Positions 560 to 17,557 are shown, numbered from the stretch's first letter. The stretch is DNA of 64,000 nucleotides from Escherichia phage EC_OE_11 (OQ108497.1); one strand, 5' to 3'. Notes: a model not told the origin generated them from the letters alone. Program-made: numbers and translations.

Positions 560-2332
560 TTAATAAGAACCAGCAGGAATATTCTCTGGGTTACTTGTGT
601 ATTGATCGTAATCGTGAAGTGTAGCTGTTTTAATCTCATAGAAGAAACTACCTGCTGCACCAGTCTCTGAGAACTCACGATTCTTTAGAATGTAGCAATA
701 TGTGCGGTTACGTTCCATAGGATCTTCAGCTTGTTTATCACGCTCCAGCGCAATTGTGATACCAGCACCTTTAGCAAGGAAGCTACTACCCATTGCATCA
801 TCTTCTACAATATGTTCATTGCTATTGTTAGAAGACTTTTTAACGTGTGAAATTACAACAATGGTGATTGCGTACTCTTTCATAATGCGTTTGAGCCACG
901 TCGCAAGTTCCTCTTGTTGTGACACGTCCATACCAGAAAGCAAGTCAGAATAAGGGTCGATAACAAGAATGGTTACTCCGAAATAAATAATCATTTCCAG
1001 AACCTTCTCTTTAATCACATCTACGTTAGCTCCACGATCATCACAAACATAGAAACGTGGTGTTCCATCTTCTCGTTCGTAAAAATCACGAATCTTTTCT
1101 TCATTATCTTTTAAAATCTTTTCCTTCTCTTCTTTCGTTTTACGGTGAAGAGGGATATGCAAGAATGAAGACAGTAAGTTACGAGAATACTTCTTATACG
1201 TTGCCTCCAAAGATAAAATACCAAGAGTATGTTCTGGGTGTGCAAGAATAATGTGCTTCGTAATCTCGTTAACCAACAGTGTCTTACCGATACTTGTTTT
1301 TGCAAGTATAACAGTAATTTCTTCTTCTACCAAGCCTCCACCTAACATATTAGAAGCAACACGCATGAATGGAGGAAGGGTGATCATTTTAGCTTCCAGG
1401 CATTCCAGGGCTGCTTCGTACAGTACGTTAGAAGCATAAACACCAGCAGGTGTGTACAGTTTAGCTTTGAAAAAGCGATCAATAAAGTGATCAATTTTTC
1501 CTTCTACTAACGCTTGGTTAGGATCTTTAACATCCGTTAGTTCCATCACGTAAACTTTATTACGTGGTAAGATTTTAACACATTTCTCAACTGCTGCACG
1601 TCCAGCTTCATCATTGTCCATACATAGAACAATCTTTTTAAATTGATCTAAGAATTTATAACGATGTTGAAGCTGCTTATGCAGAGATGTTTCGCCACAA
1701 GTACCAGATACTACAGCAGGAACAGGATATTTACCACCCTTGTTATAATCTTTTAGCATCTGTGTTGCAGCCAGCATATCGTGTTCACCACCAACGATTA
1801 GAATAGTACCGCTGTGGTTACGATATTTAAACTCCCCAAAAAGATCACAATCCTTTCCTGTTTCACCGATAGGATGCGAAAAATCTTTTGGATCGATACG
1901 TTGTTTATACCCAGCAATATTGTAATCTTTAGTTGTAGGGTATAGTGTTGAAATTACTTCGCCAGTAGCTTCATCGTACATATAGCGTACACCGAAAGGC
2001 TTAGAGATATCTTCACGAATACCACGATAACCTTTTGGATTAGTTCCAGTGCTGGCTTTTAGCTTATCATGCACTTCTGGATTAAACTCACTACCCAAGA
2101 TATCCTCCTCTTCAATTTCTTCGCCGTGTGCATTTAACCATTTTTGATCAGGGATAGTAAAGCCACAAGAAAAACAATGTGCGCCTCGATGGTCTTCATC
2201 GGCATCTAAGCCATATACCATTAAATTGTTTTGTGATCGATCACGTCCTCCTTTCATACAACGAGGACACCCAGTATGTCCTTCTTGACTTAGATCAATG
2301 TTATACCCATATTTATTTACAACATAAGACAC
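560..2332 (-). CDS. DNA primase/helicase (T7 gp4-like: zinc ribbon + TOPRIM + DnaB-type helicase)
   Basis: N-terminal CPRC..CFSCG zinc ribbon, TOPRIM-like GGEHD and DNDEAG motifs, Walker A AKTSIGKT, 590 aa. Confidence 0.85.
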   Translation of the reverse strand: MSYVVNKYGYNIDLSQEGHTGCPRCMKGGRDRSQNNLMVYGLDADEDHRGAHCFSCGFTIPDQKWLNAHGEEIEEEDILGSEFNPEVHDKLKASTGTNPKGYRGIREDISKPFGVRYMYDEATGEVISTLYPTTKDYNIAGYKQRIDPKDFSHPIGETGKDCDLFGEFKYRNHSGTILIVGGEHDMLAATQMLKDYNKGGKYPVPAVVSGTCGETSLHKQLQHRYKFLDQFKKIVLCMDNDEAGRAAVEKCVKILPRNKVYVMELTDVKDPNQALVEGKIDHFIDRFFKAKLYTPAGVYASNVLYEAALECLEAKMITLPPFMRVASNMLGGGLVEEEITVILAKTSIGKTLLVNEITKHIILAHPEHTLGILSLEATYKKYSRNLLSSFLHIPLHRKTKEEKEKILKDNEEKIRDFYEREDGTPRFYVCDDRGANVDVIKEKVLEMIIYFGVTILVIDPYSDLLSGMDVSQQEELATWLKRIMKEYAITIVVISHVKKSSNNSNEHIVEDDAMGSSFLAKGAGITIALERDKQAEDPMERNRTYCYILKNREFSETGAAGSFFYEIKTATLHDYDQYTSNPENIPAGSY

Positions 2333-2344
2333 ATGATTCTCCTA

Positions 2345-2614
2345 CTAAAATGATTCGTTTGTCTCCATAATATATTGCATTTCCAAATCTTCCATATGTT
2401 TCTTAAATTGGTAAACAATTTCCGATGGGGAAATATCTATATCAAAAAGTTCTTTTGTACCAGAATAAAACCTAATACCATCAACAATAAGACCACCATA
2501 ATAATCCCAATCACTTTCTCGTGAGAAAGGATTAGGTTCTTCATAATAGTAATCTACTTCAACAATAATAGGTTCTTTATTATCTTGTTTATACTCAAAA
2601 TCAAAAGTGTTCAT
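2345..2614 (-). CDS. hypothetical protein
   Basis: 89-aa ORF coupled to downstream gene. Confidence 0.5.
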   Translation of the reverse strand: MNTFDFEYKQDNKEPIIVEVDYYYEEPNPFSRESDWDYYGGLIVDGIRFYSGTKELFDIDISPSEIVYQFKKHMEDLEMQYIMETNESF

Positions 2615-3558
2615 TATAAATCCTCGATAAGCAGTCTGCGGGTTTCATTTAAATCATCAATATTGTAGTTATCTCTTACATACTTAGCAAGAGCCAATCC
2701 TTTCTCAATACAAACATCAGGAGATTCGATTAAGTATTCTACAATATCTTTCCACTCTTTAACTGAATCAGCAAAGAAGATTAGATCTTTAAACTCTTCA
2801 GTATAATAGTTCTCTCGTGGTGAACAAACGAGTGGCAAACCTTTAGCACCAGCTTCAAGAATTTTTAAATTACTTTTGGCATTATTAAAATGATTATTTA
2901 CTAATGGAGCTATGGAGATTTGATGACCATCGTATGCTTCCATATAGCACTCATAAGGACGAATACCTTCGTAAACACAATCTGGTTGAATATCTTCTTT
3001 AATTTGCAACCATTGAGCACTACTTAACTCTTCATGATCTCTACGAAATCCACATAAAGTTAAATCTTTACCAAAACTAGGAAGAATAGCTAAATCATGT
3101 TTATGTGTTTCACTTCCCGCCCAAACCAGTGGACTTTTAGAATAACGATCTTTCGTAAGAACAAACTGTCCTTCATCAAAAGGTAGTCCATTAGGCACAA
3201 TATGTACATTATCATTGTATTGGCTTAATTCAACCTTTAATGCTGGAGTTGTTGTAGTTACAAGATCGCTTCTTTCAAGGAACCATTTTAGATCATCTCG
3301 GATTTGATTTTCAAATAATCCTTCAAGCATATGTCCTTCAGGAATAATTAAAGAATCATCCAAATCCATTACCAATTTAAACCCAAGTTGTTTAAGAGCC
3401 AGGAAACCTGGCTTTCCACGGGTTGGTACTCCATTGAACACAAAAATATTATGCTTAGGATTAATGGTCAGTTTGCGTTTATATGGCAAAATGATTCTAT
3501 GAAAATCACATACACTATACTTTTCATTTCCGCGTGTGTCAAGAATAATATTAGGCAT
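2614..3558 (-). CDS. glycosyltransferase, GT-B-like (paralog 1)
   Basis: C-terminal KSNLKILEAGAKGLPLVCSP motif typical of GT1/GT4-type enzymes; paralogous to 3570..4544. Confidence 0.55.
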   Translation of the reverse strand: MPNIILDTRGNEKYSVCDFHRIILPYKRKLTINPKHNIFVFNGVPTRGKPGFLALKQLGFKLVMDLDDSLIIPEGHMLEGLFENQIRDDLKWFLERSDLVTTTTPALKVELSQYNDNVHIVPNGLPFDEGQFVLTKDRYSKSPLVWAGSETHKHDLAILPSFGKDLTLCGFRRDHEELSSAQWLQIKEDIQPDCVYEGIRPYECYMEAYDGHQISIAPLVNNHFNNAKSNLKILEAGAKGLPLVCSPRENYYTEEFKDLIFFADSVKEWKDIVEYLIESPDVCIEKGLALAKYVRDNYNIDDLNETRRLLIEDL

Positions 3559-3569
3559 ATCGCTCCTTA

Positions 3570-4544
3570 TTAAAGACTTTCAATAACTTGACGACGCAGT
3601 TCATTGGCATCTGCAAGATTATAATTAAGACGAACGTGTTCTGCAAGCATCATACCACGATCTTCTGTGTATCTAGGGTTTCTCATTAGCTTAACAACTT
3701 CATAATGCCAAGATGCTTTAGAGTCTGCATAGATAACAGCCTTTGCATCTACCGGATTGAAGTACGGCAGCACAGGAGAACAGATAATAGGAAGACCCTT
3801 TGCACCTGCTTCCAAAATCTTCAAATTGCTTTTACAATTGTTGAAGTCGTTATCTACCAGAGGAGCAATTGCAATACTGTGACCGTCATACACAGACATA
3901 TACTCACCTAAATTTTTAATAGCTGGTTTATACTGTGCATTTGGAATTTTACGTTTTACTTTAACCCACTCCGCAGTAGTTAGATACTGACTATTATTTC
4001 CAACAGGTGCAGAAGGATACACTTCATACCCTGCAATTGTCAATAGTGTATCATCAAATGTATTAGCTACAAGAGATAAATCAGGCTCATGGCTTGCTCC
4101 TCCAGCCCAAATAATAGGTGTGTCAGAATAACGGTCTTTTGTCAAAGTAAATTGACCTTCGTCGTAAGGTAGTGCGTTTCTAATAACGACAACATTACGA
4201 TTTAAATGACGAATTTTGTAAGCTAGGTATTCTGTTGTTACTGTAACAACATCTGCTAACTTAACCATCTCTACAATAGTCTTTGAATGATTAGTAAATA
4301 CGCCAGCCATATAATGTTCAGGATTAAGTGAATAAAAGTCATCTAAATCAACAATAATCTTAACACCTTGTGCCTTCAGGCGTTTAACTTCGTCTGCCCC
4401 ATGAGAATACACTCTATTAAAAACTAAAACGTCTTTCTTAGGTTTAAACGTATTTCCAGCAAATGGCATTACAATACGATGGTAATCACAACCACTGCCT
4501 AACTTATTATCACACTTAAGTACAGGAGTATTAGGATTTACCAT
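3570..4544 (-). CDS. glycosyltransferase, GT-B-like (paralog 2)
   Basis: Same KSNLKILEAGAKGLP motif and shared N-terminal CD(Y/F)HRI motif; start moved to ATG at 4544 with GAGGAGG SD. Confidence 0.55.
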   Translation of the reverse strand: MVNPNTPVLKCDNKLGSGCDYHRIVMPFAGNTFKPKKDVLVFNRVYSHGADEVKRLKAQGVKIIVDLDDFYSLNPEHYMAGVFTNHSKTIVEMVKLADVVTVTTEYLAYKIRHLNRNVVVIRNALPYDEGQFTLTKDRYSDTPIIWAGGASHEPDLSLVANTFDDTLLTIAGYEVYPSAPVGNNSQYLTTAEWVKVKRKIPNAQYKPAIKNLGEYMSVYDGHSIAIAPLVDNDFNNCKSNLKILEAGAKGLPIICSPVLPYFNPVDAKAVIYADSKASWHYEVVKLMRNPRYTEDRGMMLAEHVRLNYNLADANELRRQVIESL

Positions 4545-5217
4545 ATTTTTGAGCCTCCTCATAAGAGATAAAAGTTTTACCATTGCGAAGATCCTCCAGT
4601 GATTGTTTATATTGTTCCCAGTTTACACCAATCCCCTGTTCTTTCTCTTCTTTTGACAGATTCGCAAAAGGTAAAGGATTGTCTCCAAACACATCGTCAG
4701 GATGGATAAACGCCATAATTCGAATAGGACATGGTACGCCTGGAATACCTCGGTTCAAACCTGCCAGCGGAACGCGCTGAATCCACTCTGCATCTTCATA
4801 CCCATAACCGTGGGTGTATGAGCGGAAATAGCCAGCTTTCTCAATAACTGCACGGGAATACATACCAAACTGGCACATCCCTAGTTCCCAAATAACCACT
4901 TCTCCTTCAATACCTTTTACTTTATCTTTAAAGTATTCAGGCATACCAAAGAAATCCCAACCATTTTCTTTTGCCTGTTTTACAAAATATGTTTCCCAAC
5001 CTGGAACAACAGGATAACAATCATCATCAAAAATAAACCAGTAGTCATACCCTTCATCATAAAACTTTTTCATCAGTTCATTACGGGCATATGCAACACC
5101 TTTTCGTTCCCGATCATACTGCACAACAAAAGTAGCATTAGGATCAGTCACAAGATAATCTTTAAGAGGACGCTTACCTACAGTAATAACACCAACACCG
5201 ATTTTTGTATTTTCCAA
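4531..5217 (-). CDS. glycosyltransferase, GT-A-like (DxD motif)
   Basis: WFIFDDDCYP DxD-type motif, 228 aa. Confidence 0.5.
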   Translation of the reverse strand: MENTKIGVGVITVGKRPLKDYLVTDPNATFVVQYDRERKGVAYARNELMKKFYDEGYDYWFIFDDDCYPVVPGWETYFVKQAKENGWDFFGMPEYFKDKVKGIEGEVVIWELGMCQFGMYSRAVIEKAGYFRSYTHGYGYEDAEWIQRVPLAGLNRGIPGVPCPIRIMAFIHPDDVFGDNPLPFANLSKEEKEQGIGVNWEQYKQSLEDLRNGKTFISYEEAQKYGKS

Positions 5218-5226
5218 AATAACTCC

Positions 5227-5790
5227 TTAAATAATTTTATTCATGTCTTGACAATGTAAAAGGTGTGAAACAGCTTTCCTAGGATCATCACTACCTAAAC
5301 GGTATGTGTGAAATAAATATAACCCACGTAATAAACCTAGCCTTTTGTTGTTAGCATGTAATGCTTTAGAGAAAATTATATCAAATTGTATTGACCTTTC
5401 CTCAAAAGGGATTTCATTCCACAGGCTCTTACGAAAGAGAAGAAAGAATCCTGCTAAGATAGCATCTGTAGGTACTTCCTCTATTGAGTTTCCCCATTCT
5501 AGATGTGCTCTTTTTGCAATTTCAATGTGGTGTAATATATTTGGATCTTCACTTCTTTCATTATTAAATAATTGATATGTTGATCCCAGTCTATTACAAG
5601 ATGCACCAAGAACATCAAAATCAGGATTTGAACGGACTATTGATTCCAACCAAGCAGGTTGTTCTGGAAGAAGAAACATTGTATCAATGTCTCTTAGGCA
5701 AATCCAACTATCTTCTGGTAAGACACTTATTGTGTCATTGATACCTTTTCCAATATCTCCAGAAAGATAGGGAGTTATGTGAAATATCAT
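5227..5790 (-). CDS. hypothetical protein (possibly glycosyltransferase-associated)
   Basis: 187-aa ORF in glycosyltransferase cluster. Confidence 0.45.
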   Translation of the reverse strand: MIFHITPYLSGDIGKGINDTISVLPEDSWICLRDIDTMFLLPEQPAWLESIVRSNPDFDVLGASCNRLGSTYQLFNNERSEDPNILHHIEIAKRAHLEWGNSIEEVPTDAILAGFFLLFRKSLWNEIPFEERSIQFDIIFSKALHANNKRLGLLRGLYLFHTYRLGSDDPRKAVSHLLHCQDMNKII

Positions 5791-5847
5791 ACTCCCTCCG
5801 TATTATTACTTTAGCATTTTTAGACTAAAAAGTCCAAATGGTTTTAC

Positions 5848-6042
5848 CTATTGATTACGTTTTGCGAGTTCCATTTGGATAGCTAAACTGTGATCTCGTG
5901 CTTCCATATACTCTTTATATGTTTCATTAAGATGATCACGACAAACATCACGCAGTTTAATCAGTTTATCTGTAGGGATACCACTAAGATCATCCCAAGA
6001 CTTTACAACTTCACCAGTATCATTGATCCCAATGGTTTTCAT
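5848..6042 (-). CDS. hypothetical protein
   Basis: 64-aa ORF. Confidence 0.4.
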   Translation of the reverse strand: MKTIGINDTGEVVKSWDDLSGIPTDKLIKLRDVCRDHLNETYKEYMEARDHSLAIQMELAKRNQ

Positions 6043-6298
6043 CTACAACCTCCTTAATTGCTACAGCACAGTTTTTGCAGATACACTGCCCTTTACCTTT
6101 AGAAATCTGGATGTAAGGTTCATTTTCATTTTCGCCCTTACGTGAGTCATATATTACAGAATTGAAGCACACAACGCAAATATTTTTTAAGATTGTATAC
6201 TTATCAACTTTCTTTTTTGTTTTAAAGTTAACTTCAATAACATCAGCCATCAGTGTAACACTCCCAGTATGTTGTTTTGTGACATAACCATAGAACAT
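6020..6298 (-). CDS. hypothetical protein, Cys-rich (zinc-finger-like)
   Basis: CVVC...CICKNC cysteine pairs. Confidence 0.45.
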   Translation of the reverse strand: MFYGYVTKQHTGSVTLMADVIEVNFKTKKKVDKYTILKNICVVCFNSVIYDSRKGENENEPYIQISKGKGQCICKNCAVAIKEVVDENHWDQ

Positions 6299-6538: not shown

Positions 6539-7048
6539 TTAGCGATAGAATTGATGTTCTTTGTAGCGGTACACTAGAACCATATCTTTTTCCCAGTGTG
6601 CTTTTATTGTAGATTTTTTAAAGTATAATGCGCCTTTTGTAATATCTAATGCAATTCGTAATTCTGGAAAATGGTTATCGAGATAAAGTAGACGTTCTGC
6701 TATAGCCTTAGCTTCCTTCCACTTATCGTGTTCCATAACATTGAATGTCTTCGTGTAAGAGAATTGTCCTTTTTGAAACAAAACTTCTTTTATAGTATCA
6801 GGGAAATATGAATCTCTCGCCCTATTCAATACTACATTACCAACAGCAGACATACCGCGCTTTCCTTGATTACGACTTTCTGCATAGATTGCACAAGCTA
6901 ATAGATTTTCTTTACTATCACGCTTTGTACACTTGTGAACTACTTTAGCAGTTTTTACGTTTGCAGCTTCGGCTTGCGCCACAACAGGTGTAAATGTAAA
7001 AGCAGTTAAGGATAGTAACGCAATTGCGACAAAGGTTTTTATTGACAA
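6539..7048 (-). CDS. SleB-like cell wall hydrolase with N-terminal signal/SAR sequence (candidate endolysin)
   Basis: Signal-like N-terminus then CAIYAESRNQG...VGNVVLNRARD...QFSY motifs of SleB/Hydrolase_2 family. Confidence 0.75.
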   Translation of the reverse strand: MSIKTFVAIALLSLTAFTFTPVVAQAEAANVKTAKVVHKCTKRDSKENLLACAIYAESRNQGKRGMSAVGNVVLNRARDSYFPDTIKEVLFQKGQFSYTKTFNVMEHDKWKEAKAIAERLLYLDNHFPELRIALDITKGALYFKKSTIKAHWEKDMVLVYRYKEHQFYR

Positions 7049-7807: not shown

Positions 7808-8404
7808 TTACTCGAACCAATCGTCGCCAGCGCCAAACGCTTTAACTACATCGTAAATGTCAAGCCCAGCTTTACCTACACCATATGCTTTCAGTTTCCA
7901 TTCGCTATCTTCTCGCACCAGGGAGGCAACGTGGCAAATGGTGTTACCTGCAAGTTCTGGAGCCAAGAAGTCAAAGTCCAGCAGTTCAACATTACGTTCA
8001 TCATCGAAGATTTTAAGGAAACCTTCGGTAGCGTGACCAAGGCGTTTCTTACCCGTTTCGTCATCAATAGTAATTACGAATGCAATTTCCTGTGCTTCAG
8101 CAGAGATATTATCCAGTGTAACATCAATCTGCTCCATTTGTCCTACACCGTCACGAACATCTTCACCTGCAAAAGTAGAACGTTCAGGATCAAATTTCTG
8201 CGCGTAGCATACCAGGTGGCGAGGAGACAACAGTTCCGGCAGACCAGATGCGTTGTGTCGGCAAATCAGAGCACTAACATCCAGATCCAGTTTTTCGTTA
8301 GATTTCCAAGAGAATTCCAGACGAATGCGTTTCAGTGCTGGTGCGATCTTTTTCAGAGAAACTTTTTCGCTAGAACCTTTTTTCAGGGAAATTTTCTGAG
8401 TCAT
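7808..8404 (-). CDS. terD: TerD-domain protein (tellurite-resistance/stress family)
   Basis: Alignable to TerD consensus: ISLKKG..VSL, LDLDVSAL, EIAFVITIDD, SEWKLKAYGVG; AAGGAG SD. Confidence 0.8.
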   Translation of the reverse strand: MTQKISLKKGSSEKVSLKKIAPALKRIRLEFSWKSNEKLDLDVSALICRHNASGLPELLSPRHLVCYAQKFDPERSTFAGEDVRDGVGQMEQIDVTLDNISAEAQEIAFVITIDDETGKKRLGHATEGFLKIFDDERNVELLDFDFLAPELAGNTICHVASLVREDSEWKLKAYGVGKAGLDIYDVVKAFGAGDDWFE

Positions 8405-8476
8405 AATTTATTATCTCCTTTGTTGTTAATTTACGTTGTCTATTTTACTAATCTTTTCTACAAAGTCAAGCGTTTT

Positions 8477-9271
8477 TTACGCTTTTGCTCCAAATTTTTT
8501 AACCCACTCGCCAAACTCTTCGGATAACAGTTTATCGTAAAGTTCTTCATCAGACAAGGACAAATCTGCAATACCGATAAAATCAACATTATCGTACTCT
8601 TTTGCCAAGTCTTTCAGGAATTTAAAGTTTGCATTACCTACACCAACCATAAACCAGTAAACAGGTGTATTGCGGTGTTTGTTCAGCAAGCTACGTACTG
8701 CTGAAGTATCCATGTTCTCCCCGTCAGTTTGGAAGAAAATCATTGCAGGAGTACGATCAACTTGTGCATTAGTATCTACAACCTGTTCTACAACAGTACG
8801 TGTAACTTGTACAAGTTCTTTTTTACCAGTTAGTTTAGCAAGGAAACCTTTAGCCGGAACTTCTTCATACTCAACGACTTCGCGTGTAATATTTTTCATA
8901 GGTACACTGCCGAAGTATGTATCATAAATCTCTTGCATTACTGGAGCATAAGCTGTACCACCGTTGATGCAAACATTAGACATGCAAGAGCCGACATAAT
9001 CATCATACACATCAGCCGTTGCAGGAGGCAGTTCAAAAGAAGAACTATTGAAAGCCCACATGTCAATCTGTGCATTATCATCAAACTTCATACCAAACGG
9101 CAGCAGTTTACCTACAAAATCACTAACAGTGCCATCACGATACAGTTCACACATACTGCCCGAAATATCTAAGGCGCTACCGACACGAAGAACAACATCG
9201 TTAATCTTTTTCTTACGCAGAGATACAGTAAGAGTTTCTTGACGTTTTTTAAGACTGATTTTATTGGACAT
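8477..9271 (-). CDS. von Willebrand factor A domain protein (TerY-like)
   Basis: MIDAS-type DISGSM, GGTAY and FFQTDGE motifs; adjacent to TerD gene. Confidence 0.65.
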   Translation of the reverse strand: MSNKISLKKRQETLTVSLRKKKINDVVLRVGSALDISGSMCELYRDGTVSDFVGKLLPFGMKFDDNAQIDMWAFNSSSFELPPATADVYDDYVGSCMSNVCINGGTAYAPVMQEIYDTYFGSVPMKNITREVVEYEEVPAKGFLAKLTGKKELVQVTRTVVEQVVDTNAQVDRTPAMIFFQTDGENMDTSAVRSLLNKHRNTPVYWFMVGVGNANFKFLKDLAKEYDNVDFIGIADLSLSDEELYDKLLSEEFGEWVKKFGAKA

Positions 9272-9272
9272 A

Positions 9273-9542
9273 TTATTTCTCCTTTCTGAGTGTAATGTTA
9301 GTAACTTCTAAATCCACTTCTACTACTTCTGTATCATATAAAATACAGTTAAGTTGACCTCTTTGTGAACCATTCAGACACATTGCTTGGTTTGTATTAA
9401 CCTTAATAAACACTAAGTTTCTGAACGTATCTAAACCAGCATCTTGATAGGCAACATAATATACGAATGTATCACCTGCGTCAAGTTCTCCAAAAGATTT
9501 AGGTTCATCTGATTTGTCGTCTTTGATATTAAATTTAAGCAC
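9273..9542 (-). CDS. hypothetical protein
   Basis: 89-aa ORF. Confidence 0.45.
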   Translation of the reverse strand: MLKFNIKDDKSDEPKSFGELDAGDTFVYYVAYQDAGLDTFRNLVFIKVNTNQAMCLNGSQRGQLNCILYDTEVVEVDLEVTNITLRKEK

Positions 9543-10098
9543 TGTCTTCTCCTTTACCTGCTCTCAAGCCTAAATAGAAAGCCTCTCTGGTGATCTTTTG
9601 CAACTCGTTTAAAGAGATAGTTACAACTAAATCATCTTCAATTTCTAGCCTTGAGTCTTCTTCTGTCTCAATGCAAGTATTATGCACTTTGTGGTAAGGA
9701 TTGTCAACACGTTTAAATTTATTATTTTCAGTGCTGAAGAAGCAATCTGGATCTTCTTCTCCATCACCCCAGCCCTGGTTAGGGTCTTCTTCAGATCTTT
9801 CTGTTGGGATCTCACCTGTAAAGTGCTCTTCTAATACCAGAGCAATACCATCCCCAAGATCGGAAGAGAACATCAAATTACAAACTTCTTCCCAAGGCAT
9901 AGACCACTTGAATCTTTTACGATTGCCATGTTTATCTTCTTCGTTAGAGAAAACACCACCATAGCTATCATAATTGCCATACATCTCTTCAACAACTTTA
10001 CCACCTTTCAAAAGAAATAGGTAGCAAGGAGAGCCATCGAAAGAGGTAGAAAGAGCAGCATTACCAGACTCTTTGCACAAGAAACTAAAGCACCCCAT
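9535..10098 (-). CDS. hypothetical protein
   Basis: 187-aa ORF. Confidence 0.5.
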   Translation of the reverse strand: MGCFSFLCKESGNAALSTSFDGSPCYLFLLKGGKVVEEMYGNYDSYGGVFSNEEDKHGNRKRFKWSMPWEEVCNLMFSSDLGDGIALVLEEHFTGEIPTERSEEDPNQGWGDGEEDPDCFFSTENNKFKRVDNPYHKVHNTCIETEEDSRLEIEDDLVVTISLNELQKITREAFYLGLRAGKGEDSA

Positions 10099-10298
10099 TA
10101 TACACCAGCCTTAAGATCAATTAAAGCCAAAGTTGTTTCAGAATGTGTTTGCTCGTCTACAGGTGCAGTCATATGATAATACAAAAAGTCTTCGGCATCA
10201 TACCAATCTGACTCTTGACCTTGTTTCCAACCATCAATGAAAGCATCTTCCATGATGGTTTGTAACTCTTCACGAGTTAAGTGAATATCTTTACTCAT
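10098..10298 (-). CDS. hypothetical protein
   Basis: 66-aa ORF, coupled. Confidence 0.45.
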   Translation of the reverse strand: MSKDIHLTREELQTIMEDAFIDGWKQGQESDWYDAEDFLYYHMTAPVDEQTHSETTLALIDLKAGV

Positions 10299-10531
10299 TA
10301 CACATTCTCCTCTTTTACCAATTCCATCGTTGAACTATCAAAACCATCTTTAGAAGAATAGGTATAGACAGGACGTAGTTCTCGCAGGACAGTGAATACA
10401 TTAGGATCATCTAACCAAGCATCCTGGAGGAGAACATAACGATCTTCATTGTCGTACTGGACAGCAATCATAGAACCAGACAGTTTGTAAATTTTAATAT
10501 TCATAATATATTTCTCCTTAAAGTAGACCAC
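10298..10531 (-). CDS. hypothetical protein
   Basis: 77-aa ORF, coupled. Confidence 0.45.
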   Translation of the reverse strand: MVYFKEKYIMNIKIYKLSGSMIAVQYDNEDRYVLLQDAWLDDPNVFTVLRELRPVYTYSSKDGFDSSTMELVKEENV

Positions 10532-11621
10532 GTTTAACAGTTTGAATCATACCATCTTCAAGAGATTGTACTTCTTGGATGTAATCAATACGAGCAGCAC
10601 GGGCTTCAGTGTTGATTCGGTTAGTTTCTTCCAACATTTTAACTAAGTTTTCTTGATCGCGACGTAGTGTTTCAATATCCAATACTTGACGATTAGCAAG
10701 TTGTGTAGCTTCAATTTGGTTTTGTGCAGCCAGATCACTACCCATTGCAATAGCAGCATTAAATTCATTCAGTACATTGTTCTGTGTATCGGCTGCTTTC
10801 TTCTGGCGTAGACTTTCAATATACATAGAAAAGTTTGCAGAGTAAGCAGGGATAACATTATTCACAATGTTACGTGCTGATCGCATCAAACTTGCAGATA
10901 CTTTCTGCATACTTTGTACACGTGGCCCCATCTGAACACACAGTAAACGCAAGGCTTTCAGGTCTGCAATACGAATTTCAAGCAGATCCATAGTATCACG
11001 AGTACGTTGACGCTCTTCTACTTCATTTTCAGGTAGAGTATTAAGGCGAACTTCTTCTTTTTCATAAGTAGCTGTTAGAAGCTCTATATCCCTGTTTAAG
11101 CTAAGAGCATATTTTGCAATAGCCTCTTCTAAACGTTGCAGATATCGTAAAGAATCTTCTTCTTTTTTCAAGTCTGTTTGGAGTGTCTTTACCAAACCTT
11201 CAATACGATTATTGATGGTGTCAAACTCTCCAAACAAATCTTCTTTCATACCTAACACTTTCTTAACTAGCTTACCTAAACCTTTAGATTGTTTAATAGA
11301 ATTAGGATCAAGTTGCTTTGCTTGCTTAATAAGTGCAGTTAAACGTTCACTCATTTCATCTCCCTGGGATGAACGCTGGTGTTTAAGCACTTCAGCATTA
11401 AGGTTACGAAGAGTAAGTCCTGCATCAGCACCAACTTGTTCAATCTCTTCACGAGACATTGGAGGCAGCATTTGTACAGGTCGTGCAACAGCAGGTGCAT
11501 ATACAGGGCTTGCATCCATAGCACTTGGAGCAAACAAAGACTTACTCTTTTCTGTTGTTGCCGTGAATACACTCATTTCAGACGGTTTGCTTTTTACGGC
11601 ACTGATAAAAGGACTGGACAT
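10518..11621 (-). CDS. TelA-like toxic-anion-resistance family protein (tentative)
   Basis: 367 aa, disordered N-terminus then long coiled-coil; size, architecture and Ter context match TelA/KlaB; not motif-proven. Confidence 0.45.
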   Translation of the reverse strand: MSSPFISAVKSKPSEMSVFTATTEKSKSLFAPSAMDASPVYAPAVARPVQMLPPMSREEIEQVGADAGLTLRNLNAEVLKHQRSSQGDEMSERLTALIKQAKQLDPNSIKQSKGLGKLVKKVLGMKEDLFGEFDTINNRIEGLVKTLQTDLKKEEDSLRYLQRLEEAIAKYALSLNRDIELLTATYEKEEVRLNTLPENEVEERQRTRDTMDLLEIRIADLKALRLLCVQMGPRVQSMQKVSASLMRSARNIVNNVIPAYSANFSMYIESLRQKKAADTQNNVLNEFNAAIAMGSDLAAQNQIEATQLANRQVLDIETLRRDQENLVKMLEETNRINTEARAARIDYIQEVQSLEDGMIQTVKRGLL

Positions 11622-11689
11622 TCAATTTCCTCCATATTCTTTAGTAGATGGTGATACCTCTGTACCACCATCATAACACAAATTAAGTA

Positions 11690-12541
11690 TTAAACAAACA
11701 TATCTAAATAATTTGTAGTAATAAATGCTCCATCTGCTTCCAGATTAACATAACCAGTAGCATTAGTGGTTAAGAAATCCAGATCGAAGGACTCTTTAAC
11801 ACCCCGTACCTCAACACGAGAGATATCGAATACAGGTAGTGTAACAGCCTCTTCGTGCAATACCGTACCTTTGTAGGTTGCCTTAATGATAAACTTGATA
11901 TTACCCGTTCCAGCATCATACAAAACACTTTCAAACCCTTTGAGAGTATATTTATCACCAGAAGTGAAGTGCAAAGTTGCTTTGTTTACAGTACGTTTTT
12001 TACGAGGAGTTCCTTTCACACGTTTATGATCACTACGTTTTTTGTATTTAGGAATGAATACAAACGATACACTCTCAAGAAAGGTATCAACATCAAGGAT
12101 TTTAATATCCTCTGTTGCAGCAAATTTTGAAGTCGTTGCATCAAAATGCTTTCCCCTGCGATCATACATAAAGATATCAAACCGATCTTCTAAATCAAAC
12201 AAATTATGTATCTTAATTTCAGAATGCTTGCACATTGCAGCAACCTTAAACTCTTCAAAACGTGGGTGTTCTACCAGTTCTTCAAGTTTTACACCAAAGA
12301 CAGTATATGGTTTCGAAGTTTTTTCTGGTGTTGGCATTACAGAAGCATAATCACCGATTGCGCTCTTAAAGCAAAATTGTTCTTGACCTGTATTTTTACC
12401 AACGAATTTACAGTATTCGTCATCGTGCATGCTTTCCTTGGTAGTACCAACAAACTCAAAACCATCTTTATTCTTCTCAAGAATTTCTTGATTAAAGATC
12501 CAACCTTCCAGGCGATACACTTTACCAACTTCTAGTTTCAT
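11690..12541 (-). CDS. hypothetical protein
   Basis: 283-aa ORF. Confidence 0.55.
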   Translation of the reverse strand: MKLEVGKVYRLEGWIFNQEILEKNKDGFEFVGTTKESMHDDEYCKFVGKNTGQEQFCFKSAIGDYASVMPTPEKTSKPYTVFGVKLEELVEHPRFEEFKVAAMCKHSEIKIHNLFDLEDRFDIFMYDRRGKHFDATTSKFAATEDIKILDVDTFLESVSFVFIPKYKKRSDHKRVKGTPRKKRTVNKATLHFTSGDKYTLKGFESVLYDAGTGNIKFIIKATYKGTVLHEEAVTLPVFDISRVEVRGVKESFDLDFLTTNATGYVNLEADGAFITTNYLDMFV

Positions 12542-12576
12542 CTGTTTCTCCTTCTTGTTTAATCTGTATTAAATTA

Positions 12577-13182
12577 TTAACGACGACGTGAGCTACTAAA
12601 ACTACGTTTCGACGAAGAATAACTTTTCGAAGACTTACTATAAGAGCTAATAGGACTTGAGTAAGACTTACGAGCAGAGTAATCACTATTCACTTTTGTT
12701 GTTGATGGGCGTGAATACGTTTGTACACTTTGCTGCTTAATTGTGTTTTGTTTAGTGGTTGTATATGTATTTACAGGTTTATCATAAAAACTACGCTTTT
12801 GTGTTGTATATGATTTACTGTTAGTTGTAGGAGCAGCATTGTTATTAATAATGGTTGTATTGCTACCACCATCTCTATAACCACCACCGCCACTATTACC
12901 ACTCAACATATGACCAAGAAGCATACCTGTAGCAAATTCACCTACACCAGAAGAACTACTACCGCCTCCTTGCACAACAACTGTTGAAGGTTGTGCAGGT
13001 GCTGCTTGAACAACTTGAGGTGCAGGTTGATTTACATATTGTTCATCTACCATCTGATTTGGTGTTTGTTGGTAACGTTGATTTTGTACATTTTCAGAAT
13101 CATCACAACCTACCAGCAATACACTACCTAATACAACTGCAACAATAAAAGATTTAATGTTTTTCATTTGTAACCCTCTCAT
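12577..13182 (-). CDS. lipoprotein, low-complexity S/T/Y/K-rich
   Basis: Signal peptide with LLVGC lipobox; C-terminal repetitive S/Y/K region. Confidence 0.55.
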   Translation of the reverse strand: MRGLQMKNIKSFIVAVVLGSVLLVGCDDSENVQNQRYQQTPNQMVDEQYVNQPAPQVVQAAPAQPSTVVVQGGGSSSSGVGEFATGMLLGHMLSGNSGGGGYRDGGSNTTIINNNAAPTTNSKSYTTQKRSFYDKPVNTYTTTKQNTIKQQSVQTYSRPSTTKVNSDYSARKSYSSPISSYSKSSKSYSSSKRSFSSSRRR

Positions 13183-13360
13183 TTAAAGTCTCAACACAAT
13201 TTTTAAAATCCCTAGAGAAACAATACATCTGTTCTCCGTTCCTGTTGATAGTAATTGTATGATTATCAATGTATGTTGTCAAGATAAAAATCAAACAAAA
13301 TAACCCTAAAGCAAAACAAATATTTTCAAACAGAATCCAAAGAACACGTAAAACCACCAT
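13154..13360 (-). CDS. small membrane protein (hypothetical)
   Basis: 68-aa hydrophobic ORF. Confidence 0.35.
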   Translation of the reverse strand: MVVLRVLWILFENICFALGLFCLIFILTTYIDNHTITINRNGEQMYCFSRDFKNCVETLNERVTNEKH

Positions 13361-13375
13361 CAGATCACCTCAACA

Positions 13376-13393
13376 AAGCCCCCGAAGGGGCTT
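13376..13393 (-). terminator. intrinsic terminator-like hairpin downstream of terC
   Basis: aaGCCCC-cgaa-GGGGCtt followed on minus strand by TTTGTT. Confidence 0.5.
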
Positions 13394-13399
13394 AATGAA

Positions 13400-14377
13400 T
13401 TAAGCAACAGCCTGGTCTTCTTTTTCAGGGAAGATTAAACTTGCAATGACACCCAGCCCCAGAGTACCTAACACAATATACATACTGATCGTCGGATCAA
13501 TGTGTGCTGGCAGGAAACTCACTTTTGCGTGCAGAGTTTCTGCAAACGGGTGATACATCAGTTTTACACCCACAAATACCAGGACTACGATAACTGCTTT
13601 CTCCAGATGAACCAAATATTTCAGTGCAACACTAAGGACAAAGAACAGAGCACGTAGACCTAAAATTGCACACAGCATTGAAGAAAATACAAGCAGAGGT
13701 TCTTGTGTCACTGCAATTACTGCTGGAACAGAGTCTACTGCAAAGATTACGTCAACCATTTCCATTACAAACACACAAACCAGAGCCGGAGTTGCTACAC
13801 GAACACCATTTTTGATTGTGAAGAACTTCTCACCATCCATCTGATCAGATACAGGGAACAGCTTACGAACAATGCGAGTAGCCCAGTGTTTAGAGTAATC
13901 AACTTCTGCGTCATTATCTCCAGCGAATACCATTTTAGCTGCACAGAAAAGGATGACCGCACCGAAGAAGATATTAACATACCAGCCCAAACTCAACAAA
14001 TAAGTGCCTACTGCTACAAACACACCTCGGAAGACAATCGCACCTGCAATACCCCAAAGTAGAATCTTGTGTTGCAAGTGTGTGCTTTTAATACCAAAAC
14101 TTGCGAATACTGCCACAAATACTACTAAGTTATCTACAGAAAGAGATTTCTCCAACACATATCCACTCAAGAACAAGCTCGCAAAATCAGCACCGTGCTG
14201 GAAGTATACAAAACCATAGTAGGCTAATGATACCCCAATCCAGAAAATTGACCAACCAATTGCAGATTTAAATGAAATTTCTTTGTTTTCTCTGTGTCCA
14301 AAGAAATCAATACAAATCGACAACACTAAAATACCCACTAAAACAACCACATCAATAATTGGGAAACCCAGTTGCAT
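13400..14377 (-). CDS. terC: TerC-family integral membrane protein
   Basis: Multi-TM protein with duplicated TerC signature (LEKSLSVDNLVVF...LWGIAGAIVFRG and AVDSVPAVIAV...ILGLRALFF). Confidence 0.8.
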   Translation of the reverse strand: MQLGFPIIDVVVLVGILVLSICIDFFGHRENKEISFKSAIGWSIFWIGVSLAYYGFVYFQHGADFASLFLSGYVLEKSLSVDNLVVFVAVFASFGIKSTHLQHKILLWGIAGAIVFRGVFVAVGTYLLSLGWYVNIFFGAVILFCAAKMVFAGDNDAEVDYSKHWATRIVRKLFPVSDQMDGEKFFTIKNGVRVATPALVCVFVMEMVDVIFAVDSVPAVIAVTQEPLLVFSSMLCAILGLRALFFVLSVALKYLVHLEKAVIVVLVFVGVKLMYHPFAETLHAKVSFLPAHIDPTISMYIVLGTLGLGVIASLIFPEKEDQAVA

Positions 14378-14395
14378 TCTTATCTCCTCTTTAAT

Positions 14396-14414
14396 GCGGA
14401 GGACAATCCTCCGC
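14396..14414 (-). terminator. GC stem-loop just upstream of terC SD (terminator/attenuator)
   Basis: GCGGAGG-acaat-CCTCCGC hairpin between 14455..14703 and terC. Confidence 0.4.
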
Positions 14415-14454
14415 TCTATGTCTTATACTATAAACTGTTTTTAAAGAAAGTCAA

Positions 14455-14703
14455 CTAGTTCAGTTCTGTAATTTTAAGTTTATCTTCTTTGTTAATGATA
14501 GGGAAAGCTACAGCATCACCTACGTCATCAATAAAGCAAATAGCAAGACCACCTTCCACTTTACTAATCTGACCCTTAAAGGCGCGATACGGGGCAGGAA
14601 CTTTATCTCCATCTTCAAGGATAATAGCCTCGTAAACCTTGCCGATAGTACAATCACGAGTGTTTCTAAATTTTTCAAGCACTTCAACATTTACTTTACG
14701 CAT
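14455..14703 (-). CDS. hypothetical protein
   Basis: 82-aa ORF. Confidence 0.5.
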   Translation of the reverse strand: MRKVNVEVLEKFRNTRDCTIGKVYEAIILEDGDKVPAPYRAFKGQISKVEGGLAICFIDDVGDAVAFPIINKEDKLKITELN

Positions 14704-14718
14704 ATAAAAAATCCTCTC

Positions 14719-14925
14719 TTATTTGTTAGATTGAAAGATACCACGAAGTACCGCAAGAATGAACGTCACACAGACTACACTCCAAAACGTTACAGGAACA
14801 TGATGCCAGTCTAAACCGATAATGTCAATCATATAGTTGTATGCTAAAAGCAGCAGCCAACTAGGGATTAACACAATCAAAAACACAACAATAAAACAAC
14901 CTAATACTGCTAAAACACCTGCCAT
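14719..14925 (-). CDS. small membrane protein
   Basis: 68 aa, two predicted TM helices. Confidence 0.5.
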   Translation of the reverse strand: MAGVLAVLGCFIVVFLIVLIPSWLLLLAYNYMIDIIGLDWHHVPVTFWSVVCVTFILAVLRGIFQSNK

Positions 14926-14934
14926 ACTTTCTCC

Positions 14935-15651
14935 TTATTTCAGTTTGTAAACAATTACATTTAAACCTTTGTTTACTAGAGTTTCTTCGATCATAAGTTT
15001 TACAATATTCCAAGAACCTCCAGCCAAACCACAACCAAGCATTGGTAAACCTACAATTTTACCGCCTGAAGATACAACATCGTCTCCCATACTATCTAGC
15101 GCATTGTAGATAGCTTCATAATTCAGATCACGCTTACCTTCCTCACGACTACTATAACCATATTGTCCATATAAATTATAAATTGTCAAATTGTTTTCTG
15201 TATATTTGGTAAACGTACCTAATTTTTTATAATCACCACGTTTAGTGGCACAATCTGCTTTAAACGCACCAGGCCACTTGCTTTTAATTTTTGGTGCAAT
15301 ACCACTACCCATAGTGCAAAAACAGTTACAGCAGTGTGCTATAGCGTCTATATCGCCTCTCTCGGCTGCTGCTAAAAGATCACCGTATACCTCAACGATA
15401 CCTGCTGGATAACTTGTTACAATTTCATCTTCCCAGTACATTTTCTCTACACCACCGATCAGTGCAAAGTTTTGTGTAATGCGATCATCAATATAGTTAA
15501 GACCTGAAACATACACAGCGTATTCATCCTGTGCTGTAATACCTTGCACACGAATTCTTAAGACACCATCTTTATCTGTTGCTACACGCCCAAAATCTTT
15601 TTCTGTAATATTGGTGATAGGATCTCCGAAAGTCATTACTTTATTAGACAT
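14935..15651 (-). CDS. macro-domain-like protein (putative ADP-ribose binding/processing), tentative
   Basis: DAIAHCCNCFCTMGSGIA resembles macro DAIVNAAN..LGGGGV motif, later LPMLGCGLAGG; start moved to ATG at 15651 (SD AAAGGGGA) to clear PRTase overlap. Confidence 0.4.
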   Translation of the reverse strand: MSNKVMTFGDPITNITEKDFGRVATDKDGVLRIRVQGITAQDEYAVYVSGLNYIDDRITQNFALIGGVEKMYWEDEIVTSYPAGIVEVYGDLLAAAERGDIDAIAHCCNCFCTMGSGIAPKIKSKWPGAFKADCATKRGDYKKLGTFTKYTENNLTIYNLYGQYGYSSREEGKRDLNYEAIYNALDSMGDDVVSSGGKIVGLPMLGCGLAGGSWNIVKLMIEETLVNKGLNVIVYKLK

Positions 15652-16501
15652 AATAATCCCCTTTAACATTAGATTTGTTGATAATGTTGCTTTCAAAAAA
15701 TTGACGTAGGAAATCAAAGTTCTCTTTGTATTTTTCAATGTTATTGTAGCCTTCTGCAAGGCAACCAAAGAACAGTTGTTCTACATAATACAAAGGAAGC
15801 TGTGAAAGTGCAATTTTAAAATCAACTTCGCTTTGACTCATTAGATACTTAATAGGACGAACCAAACATTTAGCATCAGTTTCTTGCTTAATCATTTTAA
15901 TAAAAGCTGCCAGGTTATTGATATAGTTGAAGTTAAGTGCAGCTTCGGTGTTGGCTTCTGTACCTTCATACTTTGCAAAGTACAGGAAAAACGTATCGTT
16001 TTCAACACCTTCTTTGTCTAAAATTTCAATAAGTTTTTCTTCGTGTGTTCCTGTAATATTAACATCATCAATGAAAATCAGAGTTTTATTACCCCAGAAA
16101 TCACGATTGATAGAGAAAGTGTCACCATCGATCAAAGCCTTACGATCTTCTTTGCTAAGAAATCCATAATCATTGATATAGCTCACTTTACGATGAACGA
16201 TATCCCACTCCACTGGTTTACCACCTTTGATAGAGATTAGGTAGTTGAGGTGATCTACAAAATGTTCAGATAACACTGTAGCTGCATTTTTCACATAGTT
16301 ATATGGAGATGGAATAACAACAAAACTTTCATTTACCAGTCGTTCTTCATACTTAGAAAAGAAACTTTCAGCCAGAATGCGCCCCATTCTTTTTGCTGCC
16401 TGGTTACTACCAAACTTTAGTTTGGAATAATCTGCAATGTTAAATTTTGCTTCCTTCAGGTTAGTAAAAGTATTAGCAAAATGTTGAATTTGATTACGCA
16501 T
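15644..16501 (-). CDS. phosphoribosyltransferase-like protein (Ter-associated PRTase type)
   Basis: PRPP-binding-like motif LIFIDDVNITGTHE; AGAGGA SD. Confidence 0.6.
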   Translation of the reverse strand: MRNQIQHFANTFTNLKEAKFNIADYSKLKFGSNQAAKRMGRILAESFFSKYEERLVNESFVVIPSPYNYVKNAATVLSEHFVDHLNYLISIKGGKPVEWDIVHRKVSYINDYGFLSKEDRKALIDGDTFSINRDFWGNKTLIFIDDVNITGTHEEKLIEILDKEGVENDTFFLYFAKYEGTEANTEAALNFNYINNLAAFIKMIKQETDAKCLVRPIKYLMSQSEVDFKIALSQLPLYYVEQLFFGCLAEGYNNIEKYKENFDFLRQFFESNIINKSNVKGDYYV

Positions 16502-17150: not shown

Positions 17151-17319
17151 TTTTAATCCTCCGTCCAAAAGAATATCATCTGCTTAATTTTATTGATCTC
17201 TTGATGTAGTAACTTTCCAGCATGTAATTGATCTTTAATATTGACAGCAAGAATTTCAAGCTCCGTCAGTTTTTCTTGGATAGCTTTATATTCATCATCT
17301 GTAAGCATTTTCTTCCCCT

Positions 17320-17523
17320 TTAGAATGGTAATCTTTGTATGTCACTTGTCCCCACACCAAGAAGTCTAGCAATATCCTTATCTAAAAGCAACTCTTTTTG
17401 TTCTAAAATGTTAATCAGATCTCCTAATACTTCTTTAATGTCACGATCATTTTTAGCAACGTGACCACCTGCGGTATCAACTTTATCTTTAAAAATAAAA
17501 TAATGATCCATAATACCCTCCAT
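17320..17523 (-). CDS. hypothetical protein
   Basis: 67-aa ORF. Confidence 0.45.
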   Translation of the reverse strand: MEGIMDHYFIFKDKVDTAGGHVAKNDRDIKEVLGDLINILEQKELLLDKDIARLLGVGTSDIQRLPF

Positions 17524-17530
17524 ATAAATA

Positions 17531-17550
17531 AAGGAGGCTTTCGCCTCCTT
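17531..17550 (-). terminator. intrinsic terminator (bidirectional-looking)
   Basis: aAGGAGGC-tttc-GCCTCCTt with T-rich flanks on both strands, downstream of AAA+ ATPase gene. Confidence 0.55.
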
Positions 17551-17557
17551 TTATCAC

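Follow-up and report, generated by a model that had tools for sequence, protein, structure and literature searches.

A glycosyltransferase module of phi92-like coliphages and its possible role in virion glycosylation

The window analysed here is a 64,000-nucleotide stretch of Escherichia phage EC_OE_11 (OQ108497.1), in which positions 2614 to 5790 are filled exactly by four minus-strand open reading frames (ORFs), labelled A, B, C and D (Table 1). All four match PHROG families named glycosyltransferase (E 1e-79 to 1e-149), in keeping with a preliminary description, made from the sequence, that had placed a cluster of glycosyltransferase-like genes at this position. The RefSeq and GenBank label for all four genes is likewise glycosyltransferase, and the BASEL label for A and B is 'putative disaccharide synthase'; the glycosyltransferase (GT) annotation was public beforehand, so the observation of the genes is not new. 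The only published idea on the purpose of the module is rhamnosylated DNA. What is added here is that DNA rhamnosylation is poorly supported, that the genomic contexts of remote homologs point to virion glycosylation, and that unrelated phages share a recurrent GT-A/GT-B cassette.

In a sequence search, window positions 2300 to 6100 are 99.0% identical to Escherichia phage JohannJBalmer (BASEL Bas62) and 98% identical to phi92, alia and approximately 50 further Justusliebigvirus genomes. These relatives are virulent myoviruses of 145–150 kb belonging to the subfamily Stephanstirmvirinae, which agrees with the virulent phage that the preliminary description had supposed. Between the phi92-like and the phAPEC8-like genera the A–D genes have 66–76% amino-acid identity. 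Several records named 'Campylobacter phage' (MG065639, MG065645, MG065650, MG065656 and MG065689; host Campylobacter jejuni) are likewise 98% identical to this region or, in the case of B15, phAPEC8-like; these records are probably mislabelled or contaminant coliphages.

Within the block, neighbouring ORFs overlap or stand 9–11 nt apart, and a Shine-Dalgarno sequence stands before every one of them. Read as its longest ORF, gene B starts at 4583 and shares 53 nt with gene C; a start at the ATG of 4544 is more likely, given the GAGGAGG Shine-Dalgarno sequence there and the agreement with the RefSeq model of alia. The block lies next to a replication gene, as previously described, namely a primase/helicase separated from gene A by an 89-aa ORF. 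Since no predicted terminator was found on the minus strand from 7566 to 1453, A–D, the 89-aa ORF and the primase/helicase probably share one long transcription unit; a promoter and terminator scan returned counts equal to the shuffled expectation and hence gives no information. Across the phi92-like subfamily and its metagenomic relatives, the core of this arrangement comprises a C-like GT-A, one A-like GT-B, an ORF of 83–89 aa, the primase/helicase and the DNA polymerase. A nucleoside diphosphate (NDP)-sugar epimerase/dehydratase adjoins this core at times, and gene D and the second GT-B vary. The product of the 89-aa ORF is very acidic, and the ORF is translationally coupled to gene A. As a candidate member of the module (an acceptor or carrier protein) it was rejected, because it adjoins the primase in PVP-SE1, GAP31 and Av-05 too, which places it with the replication block; these three phages are absent among the listed matches to A, C and D. 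None of the A–D products has a membrane segment, the maximum 19-residue Kyte–Doolittle hydropathy being 0.8–1.2. By isoelectric point (pI), A, C and D are acidic at 5.1–5.6 (D at 5.6) and B is mildly basic at 7.7–8.8.

Genes A and B are 40% identical in a pairwise comparison (E 7e-82) and match the same family, phrog_7162, with E 4e-145 and 7e-149, respectively. The product of A passes the Pfam cut-off for Glyco_trans_1_2 (PF13524; 26.8 bits, cut-off 25), and that of B has sub-threshold scores for GT1-type families, the best being 17.9 and 14.9 bits. An AlphaFold model of A, calculated from a 41-sequence alignment with a predicted local distance difference test (pLDDT) of 94.9 and a predicted template-modelling score (pTM) of 0.92, adopts a GT-B fold with two Rossmann-like domains. 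Compared with the PDB by Foldseek, the model gave 257 matches at E<=0.001, of which the top ones are GT4-type (7qsg, BshA, SdgB, TreT, GlgM, PglA, MshA, GtfC, Gtf3 and TarM); a methylmannose polysaccharide mannosyltransferase is among these GT4-like neighbours. The values against these GT4-like enzymes are E ~1e-9 and a query TM-score (TMq) of 0.56–0.62, at 12–17% identity. Judged by its model, gene A is a GT-B-fold, GT4-like glycosyltransferase, and from the 40% identity we infer the GT-B fold for gene B as well, so the two tandem GT-B-like paralogs of the preliminary description are borne out. The 'disaccharide synthase' label, taken as LpxB-like, found no support for A and B, since GT19 LpxB is absent from the best 50 PDB matches of the gene A model; LpxB is absent from the family profile search of PDB sequences as well.

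Residues invariant in the gene A family are R21, D67-D68, H76, N123, H152, D155, K228-S229, K232 and E235, the last being a Glu in the segment KILEAGAKG; the N-terminal domain also has an invariant DLDD. The second Glu of the EX7E motif of GT4 is missing, position 243 being Leu in A and Ile in B. Gene A thus resembles bacterial GT4 enzymes (BshA, MshA, PglA, SdgB, TarM and GtfC) in being a predicted two-Rossmann-domain GT-B protein with an invariant Glu. Unlike these enzymes, A and B are short (314–324 aa), are only 12–17% identical to them, do without the second EX7E Glu and carry the invariant DLDD.

Gene C belongs to phrog_2456 (E 2.5e-79), and its AlphaFold model (pLDDT 89.5) has a GT-A fold. 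The invariant residues are R16, D35, F63-D64-D65-D66 (FDDD) and Y138-G139-x-E141-D142. Its best PDB match by Foldseek is STIV A197 (E 4e-6), followed by majastridin, the fucosyltransferase WrtF, COLGALT1, LH3 and TarP, and in a viral structure library the best named matches are GT2-like proteins of megavirus and uncultured phages. The family is large, with 1,476 clusters at E<=0.001 in a profile search of 1.8 billion representative proteins. Among 75 members of the wider family that were scanned, 40 match GT2 (PF00535), 32 match Glyco_transf_7C (PF02709) and only 11 match TAGT weakly at E<=0.001 (best E 1.6e-5, apparently below the cut-off). Gene C itself scores 23.3 bits (E 6.8e-5) against TAGT, the TET-associated glycosyltransferase family (PF20691), for which the gathering cut-off is 27.5, and this match covers residues 16–75 only, from the N-terminus through the DxD motif. 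With the model taken together with its family, gene C is a predicted GT-A-fold, GT2/GT7-like glycosyltransferase that is presumably metal-dependent and inverting. It corresponds to the GT-A-like DxD enzyme of the preliminary description, which its invariant FDDD, its YG-x-ED motif and its GT-A model uphold.

Gene D had been described as an adjacent unknown. It matches phrog_14179, named 'glycosyltransferase', with E 1.5e-112, and has no match in Pfam. In 33 homologs the invariant positions are P7, N18, D34-x-D36, N66-R67, Q73, H88, D137, H161, Y163-R164 and H176, so that the protein has a DxD motif as well as a C-terminal H161-x-Y163-R164 motif. It is 35% identical to the C-terminal half of gp39, a two-domain GT of Cellulophaga phage phi18:2, and its homologs are always found among glycan genes. 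A few members of its family have weak GT2-like Pfam matches, and a profile comparison with the gene C family aligns the two DxD motifs at a probability of just 6.9%. Its similarity to GT-A families is weak, and gene D is regarded as no more than a probable compact GT-A-type glycosyltransferase. Sequence and family-profile searches of PDB sequences with A, C and D were uninformative beyond weak GT4 matches for A, and none of A–D matched an entry in NCBIfam.

A partner pathway for the synthesis of deoxythymidine diphosphate (dTDP)-L-rhamnose lies outside the window. In alia, gp189–192 (113.5–116.8 kb) are RmlD, RmlC, RmlA and RmlB, all above the NCBIfam equivalog cut-offs, with bit scores (cut-offs in brackets) of 473 (361) for rmlA, 441 (365) for rmlB, 260 (156) for rmlC and 254 (224) for rmlD; RmlC is also present in Bas62 at 99.5% identity. 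The rml genes are located about 9–12 kb past the high-coordinate end of the window and about 70 kb from the A–D block. The numbers of phage records in identity bands of at least 60% are nearly equal for RmlC (131), A (127), C (126) and D (131), which indicates that the sugar pathway and the transferases travel together. Olsen et al. 2020 reported that phi92-like and phAPEC8-like phages encode the complete dTDP-rhamnose pathway, and speculated that rhamnose is placed on hydroxymethylated nucleotides.

Homologs of A, C and D outside the subfamily were followed in eight genomic neighbourhoods, five of them metagenomic (L016, L017, L019, L020 and L021). Packaging or head genes adjoin the remote homolog in six of the eight. 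Mycobacteriophage Pacc40 encodes a 540-aa protein, gp98, whose GT-A domain is 26% identical to gene C (pairwise E 5e-14); in total, 341 Mycobacterium phage records match gene C. Pacc40 gp98 lies at the right genome end in the cluster F GT locus, just upstream of HNH and terminase genes, and the equivalent locus in Che8 is occupied by gp108–110. According to two papers that cite Freeman et al. 2023, the capsid and tail proteins of Che8 are glycosylated, a modification for which gp110 is essential (PMC11256854, PMC12363180). Gene A matches gp6 of Streptomyces phage KimJongPhill, a member of a trio of UDP (uridine diphosphate)-glucose dehydrogenase, methyltransferase and GT genes that immediately precedes those for the small terminase, portal, scaffold and capsid. 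Eight contigs represent an unrelated 36-kb phage in which a C-family GT-A (hhalign 98.1%, E 7.5e-14) stands beside an A-family GT-B; this pair and a 71-aa ORF head a tight operon that encodes both terminase subunits (small and large), the portal, MuF, the protease and the capsid, and the replication genes are on the opposite strand.

The remaining structural neighbourhoods are similar in kind. In L021 an acetyltransferase and a GT2 immediately precede the small terminase gene, and the A-like GT stands about 3 kb upstream of these two. In L016 a D-like gene is found between the large terminase and the portal and capsid genes, where a GT2, two Methyltransf_24 genes and a polysaccharide deacetylase accompany it, with a UDP-galactopyranose mutase further upstream. 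The D-like C-terminal GT domain of phi18:2 is encoded between the minor capsid and the prohead protease and major capsid genes, again next to Methyltransf_24. The A, C and D families in other phages thus mostly accompany head and packaging genes, with which they are probably co-expressed, and often accompany enzymes that methylate sugars or make sugar nucleotides. That a C-like GT-A and an A-like GT-B recur side by side in unrelated genomes suggests a functional unit that moves between phages. Outside phages, a 411-aa homolog of gene A, 35% identical, is encoded in Burkholderia dolosa (JAIMDN010000082, 3025–8440) downstream of an invasin-type adhesin gene; the homolog, this inverse-autotransporter/invasin adhesin and an unannotated 571-aa protein form an apparent operon, for the neighbours in which Pfam gave no information. 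It could be an adhesin-glycosylation system, and the adjacency to an adhesin is compatible with a protein acceptor.

Because the layout beside head and packaging genes resembles that of the experimentally supported virion glycosylation of mycobacteriophages, virion proteins are proposed as the acceptors of A–D. By this analogy the favoured reading, at somewhat less than an even chance, is that the four enzymes glycosylate virion proteins. They would constitute a co-transcribed glycan-assembly module in which the GT-B pair is GT4-like, C is a GT-A enzyme of the GT2/GT7-like type and D is a small, probable GT-A enzyme. All four, soluble and cytoplasmic, would draw on UDP-sugars of the host and on dTDP-L-rhamnose from the RmlBADC enzymes of the phage. 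Acting in sequence, they would build a short oligosaccharide on a protein acceptor, most likely on phage structural proteins, and the released virions would then carry a glycan coat, in parallel with the glycosylated capsids and tails known from cluster F, O and C mycobacteriophages. We infer the use of rhamnose, the nature of the acceptor (from the remote-homolog contexts) and the order of action. Since dTDP-beta-L-rhamnose is normally used by inverting enzymes, the GT-A enzymes C or D are more likely to be the rhamnosyltransferases. The fuller idea is more tentative still: coliphages of the phi92-like and phAPEC8-like groups would make a rhamnose-containing O-glycan of their own as a coat for their virions, and the C-like and A-like pair would be a mobile 'virion glycosylation cassette' common to unrelated phages.

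Two groups of known systems may be compared with the module. The mycobacteriophage loci (Che8 gp108–110, Corndog gp38 and Myrna) also contain, according to papers that cite Freeman et al. 2023, several cytoplasmic phage GTs without DNA-modification partners, and gene C is homologous to the GT-A domain of Pacc40 gp98 in the same right-end cluster F locus. Unlike these loci, the present module belongs to a phage of a Gram-negative host, stands in the replication block and not at the terminase genes and is accompanied by its own dTDP-rhamnose pathway. A second precedent is offered by STIV A197 and by the glycan-building GT sets of giant viruses and chloroviruses, where soluble GT-A enzymes encoded by the virus modify capsid or fibril proteins and do not depend on the secretory machinery of the host. 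Megavirus GTs are among the best matches of gene C in the viral structure library, and the best PDB match of gene C to A197, from an archaeal virus, counts in favour of virion proteins as the acceptors. The likeness of gene C to A197 and the giant-virus enzymes is at the level of fold (TM 0.38–0.66, 12–21% identity), the hosts there are eukaryotic or archaeal, and no homology to the PBCV-1 rhamnosyltransferase A064R appears among the top PDB matches of gene C. As a separate observation, the tail sheath of alia (NC_052655, 7057–8463) has a Ser/Thr/Asn-rich end, NRTANSQNSNSSTVSS, with nine Ser or Thr among the last 20 residues, which is a speculative candidate for an O-glycosylation site.

Several points weigh against virion proteins as the acceptors. 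The module is located in the replication and early/middle block, shares its strand with the primase/helicase and DNA polymerase genes and stands apart from the late structural genes. The remote homologs are just 25–35% identical, a distance at which the acceptor specificity of GTs is not conserved. Che8 gp108, gp109 and gp110 have no detectable similarity to A, C or D, and two of the eight neighbourhoods (L017 and L020, one with a D-like and one with an A-like gene) are large clusters with aminotransferase, dehydratase, methyltransferase, radical-SAM and further GT genes, in which no structural genes are in view. In the searchable literature neither data on glycans of phi92-like virions nor a reported test of the acceptor of A–D was found; a glycostaining study of ten phages (PMC12894461) names neither glycosyltransferases nor these genera, so that it could not be tied to this group. 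In addition, the fold neighbours BshA, MshA, PimA, 7qsg and TarP have also been reported for proven phage DNA GTs (PMC13326640; bioRxiv 2023.12.21.572611), and the DNA GTs of RB69, DLP3 and RL38J1 match the same PDB entries (PMC13326640). Structure thus cannot discriminate among DNA, protein and lipid acceptors.

The preliminary description had hinted at DNA base glycosylation, and had pointed to a C5-cytosine methyltransferase gene at 63.3 kb. In that case A–D would put rhamnose or other sugars on phage bases as a defence against restriction, as happens in T4, RB69/DLP3 and MT-TET-GT phages. The module does stand among replication genes, like RB69 the phage supplies an NDP-sugar itself (PMC13326640), it encodes the C5-methyltransferase, and Olsen et al. 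2020 proposed this very function. The DNA of RB69 and DLP3 is moreover modified by GT-B pairs with the same PDB neighbours (PMC13326640), the R...DDD...ED motif of gene C is like that of phage and JGT DNA GT-A enzymes, and gene C weakly matches both TAGT (E 6.8e-5) and a PHROG of beta-glucosyl-hydroxymethylcytosine (HMC)-alpha-glucosyltransferase (E 5e-5). However, gene C remains under the TAGT cut-off and its family is mainly GT2/GT7-like; A, C and D are acidic; and T-even phages, RB69 and known DNA-glycosylating phages are not among the listed tblastn matches of A, C and D in 50,697 phage records. The T4 alpha- and beta-glucosyltransferases (AGT and BGT) are not in the best 50 PDB Foldseek matches of gene A, and generic fold neighbours are shared with DNA GTs (3mbo, 3c4q, 2gej, 7qsg, 6kih and TarP; PMC13326640; bioRxiv 2023.12.21.572611). 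Every known route to glycosylated pyrimidines requires a hydroxyl-bearing base. It comes from a ThyA-family enzyme where it is made before replication, and from the action of a TET/JBP oxygenase on 5-methylcytosine (5mC) or T where it is made afterwards (PMC13326640; bioRxiv 2023.12.21.572611); no enzyme making such a precursor was found. The only thymidylate synthase of the phage is ThyX-type (Pfam Thy1, PF02511, E 1.9e-9; TIGR02170), and tblastn with E. coli ThyA gave no match below E 0.5 in the window, in alia (the full 147 kb) or in ten related loci; nor was a ThyA homolog found by tblastn in any of the eight remote contexts. No Tet_JBP or 2-oxoglutarate (2OG) oxygenase was found among 33 window proteins (every ORF of at least about 150 aa and some shorter ORFs close to the cluster, with those beside the C5-methyltransferase among them) and seven alia proteins, a scan that small or very divergent ones could escape. 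The alia annotation has no such entry, and the precomputed Pfam lists of all five metagenomic loci contain no Tet_JBP. The C5-methyltransferase is genuine (63262–63999, the C-terminal 245 of 329 aa; PF00145, E 3e-43; 98% identical to alia gp168) and is cut by the window end, and no TET partner for it was found in the proteins scanned. T4, RB69/DLP3 (arabinosyl-5-hydroxycytosine, 5hoC) and the MT-5mYOX-GT systems likewise combine several GT-A or GT-B enzymes with their own NDP-sugar supply near DNA metabolism genes; unlike them, this phage has no ThyA-family hydroxymethylase or hydroxylase, no TET/JBP enzyme that was found and a gene C below the TAGT cut-off, and its group is sensitive to restriction. 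Most telling, on the restriction sensitivity that had been suggested as a check, are published plating data, in which Bas60, Bas61 and Bas62 form zero plaques on EcoRI, EcoRV and EcoP1 hosts and plate with an efficiency of ~0.1–0.2 on EcoKI and 0.06–0.4 on EcoCFT_II (supplement of PMC8594841). Maffei et al. called these phages 'exceptionally susceptible' to restriction–modification (RM) systems 'despite a putative dTDP glycosylation machinery' (PMC8594841). This sensitivity excludes a genome-wide modification of C or T, and on the side of DNA just a rare, motif-restricted modification would remain. Base glycosylation by A–D is therefore disfavoured and in our estimate very unlikely, and the rhamnosylated-DNA idea, which conflicts with the restriction sensitivity, is poorly supported.

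Acceptors other than DNA and virion proteins also have to be weighed. The second suggestion of the preliminary description, host surface modification, would place A–D at the inner membrane, on its cytoplasmic face, with lipid-linked intermediates as substrates: undecaprenyl-pyrophosphate (Und-PP)-linked sugars, lipopolysaccharide (LPS) core, enterobacterial common antigen (ECA) or the NGR glycan. Receptors would thereby be hidden, superinfection prevented or the glycan synthesis of the host redirected. GT4-like GT-B enzymes (PglA, PimA and WaaG-type) and GT2-like GT-A enzymes commonly use lipid-linked acceptors, and PglA and PimA are themselves among the structural neighbours of gene A; rhamnose is typical of O-antigen and LPS, the receptors of these phages are LPS core glucose and a surface glycan, and the BASEL label of A and B fits in as well. 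Yet none of A–D has a membrane segment or marked hydrophobic stretch, LpxB is outside the best 50 structural neighbours of gene A, and a flippase or membrane component of the Gtr type is not among the four genes, so that the pattern of GtrABC-type O-antigen modification is not seen. A strictly lytic phage would presumably leave little time for changes to reach the outer membrane, and the remote homologs lie in head and packaging operons and not in positions typical of lysogenic conversion. Host surface modification thus stays in view as an unlikely explanation for which nothing specific speaks. Alternatively, the acceptor may be another soluble molecule: a protein (of the host, or a non-structural one of the phage), a small molecule or a metabolite akin to a nucleotide, for example the product of the Ter-associated PRTase/HAD/Macro module 9–12 kb away on the same strand. 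The A–D proteins are all soluble and mostly acidic, and the structural neighbours of gene A include protein O-glycosyltransferases (SdgB, GtfC and Gtf3) as well as enzymes with small-molecule acceptors (BshA and MshA). The same-strand cluster of Ter, PRTase_3, HAD and Macro genes at 7.8–18.7 kb is moreover syntenic with the GT block in a 59%-identical relative. However, the C-like and A-like pair is present in small phages without Ter genes, no specific candidate acceptor was identified, and four transferases with a dedicated rhamnose pathway would point to an oligosaccharide and not to a single-sugar tag. A soluble acceptor of this kind is, in our view, quite unlikely, if less so than DNA.

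Other features of the window may be mentioned briefly. Next to the GT block, from 7808 to 18718 on the minus strand, lies a Ter-type stress-response and biosynthesis cluster (Table 1). A NADAR-domain protein is encoded at 34820–35371 on the plus strand (E 2e-36) and a Sir2-family protein at 61118–61930 on the minus strand (E 2e-22), and the alia genome has NAMPT and PRPP (phosphoribosyl pyrophosphate)-synthetase genes elsewhere. Together with the Macro-domain protein, these suggest a theme of NAD/ADP-ribose metabolism or counter-defence. At 6539–7048 on the minus strand, a cell-wall hydrolase of the SleB/Hydrolase_2 type starts with a hydrophobic, signal-like N-terminal segment, MSIKTFVAIALLSLTAFTFTPVVAQA; it is labelled endolysin in alia, where a separate T4-lysozyme-like gene is present in the same genome. 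Among plus-strand early genes, the ORF at 33647–34819 encodes 390 aa with three CapR-homology repeats and a T5orf172/GIY-YIG-like domain, which by sequence looks like a homing-endonuclease-type or DNA-binding nuclease. The sign of the GC skew flips at about 30–30.5 kb and 60–60.5 kb, at the places where gene orientation changes from minus to plus and back to minus. With its higher GC content (0.41–0.43) and few long ORFs, and with repeat regions annotated at its alia counterpart, the stretch at 36–40 kb may be an origin or regulatory region.

Table 1. Positions of the glycosyltransferase genes A–D and of annotated features near them in the window.
Feature	Position	Strand	Remarks
Gene D	5227-5790	-	187 aa; first gene of the block; soluble
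Gene C	4531-5217	-	228 aa; TTG start
Gene B	3570-4583	-	337 aa as longest ORF; 324 aa from ATG at 4544
Gene A	2614-3558	-	314 aa; last gene of the block
89-aa ORF	2345-2614	-	Between gene A and primase/helicase; phrog_4240; pI 4.1
Primase/helicase	560-2332	-	DnaB_C and Toprim_2 Pfam matches
TerD-like	7808-8404	-	Syntenic relative and alia annotation
vWA/TerF-like	8477-9271	-	Syntenic relative and alia annotation
TelA-like	10518-11621	-	Syntenic relative and alia annotation
TerC-like	13400-14377	-	Syntenic relative and alia annotation
Macro-domain protein	14935-15768	-	Pfam
ComF-like PRTase_3	15644-16501	-	Pfam
HAD hydrolase	16494-17168	-	Pfam
AAA ATPase	17558-18718	-	Pfam

The module and the complete rhamnose pathway occur together in about 130 sequenced phages of E. 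coli and Klebsiella (Justusliebigvirus, Phapecoctavirus and relatives); many of them are phage-therapy candidates, and the group is widely used in therapy cocktails. If the target were a host molecule, the module would represent a new mechanism of host takeover or exclusion. If, instead, the proposed glycosylation of virion proteins is true, it would extend virion glycosylation beyond the actinobacteriophages, in which it has been documented so far, and to our knowledge this would be the first such system in Gram-negative phages. A glycan on the virion would also bear on how the immune system recognises therapeutic phages and on their pharmacokinetics, and could alter antibody recognition, clearance or adsorption.

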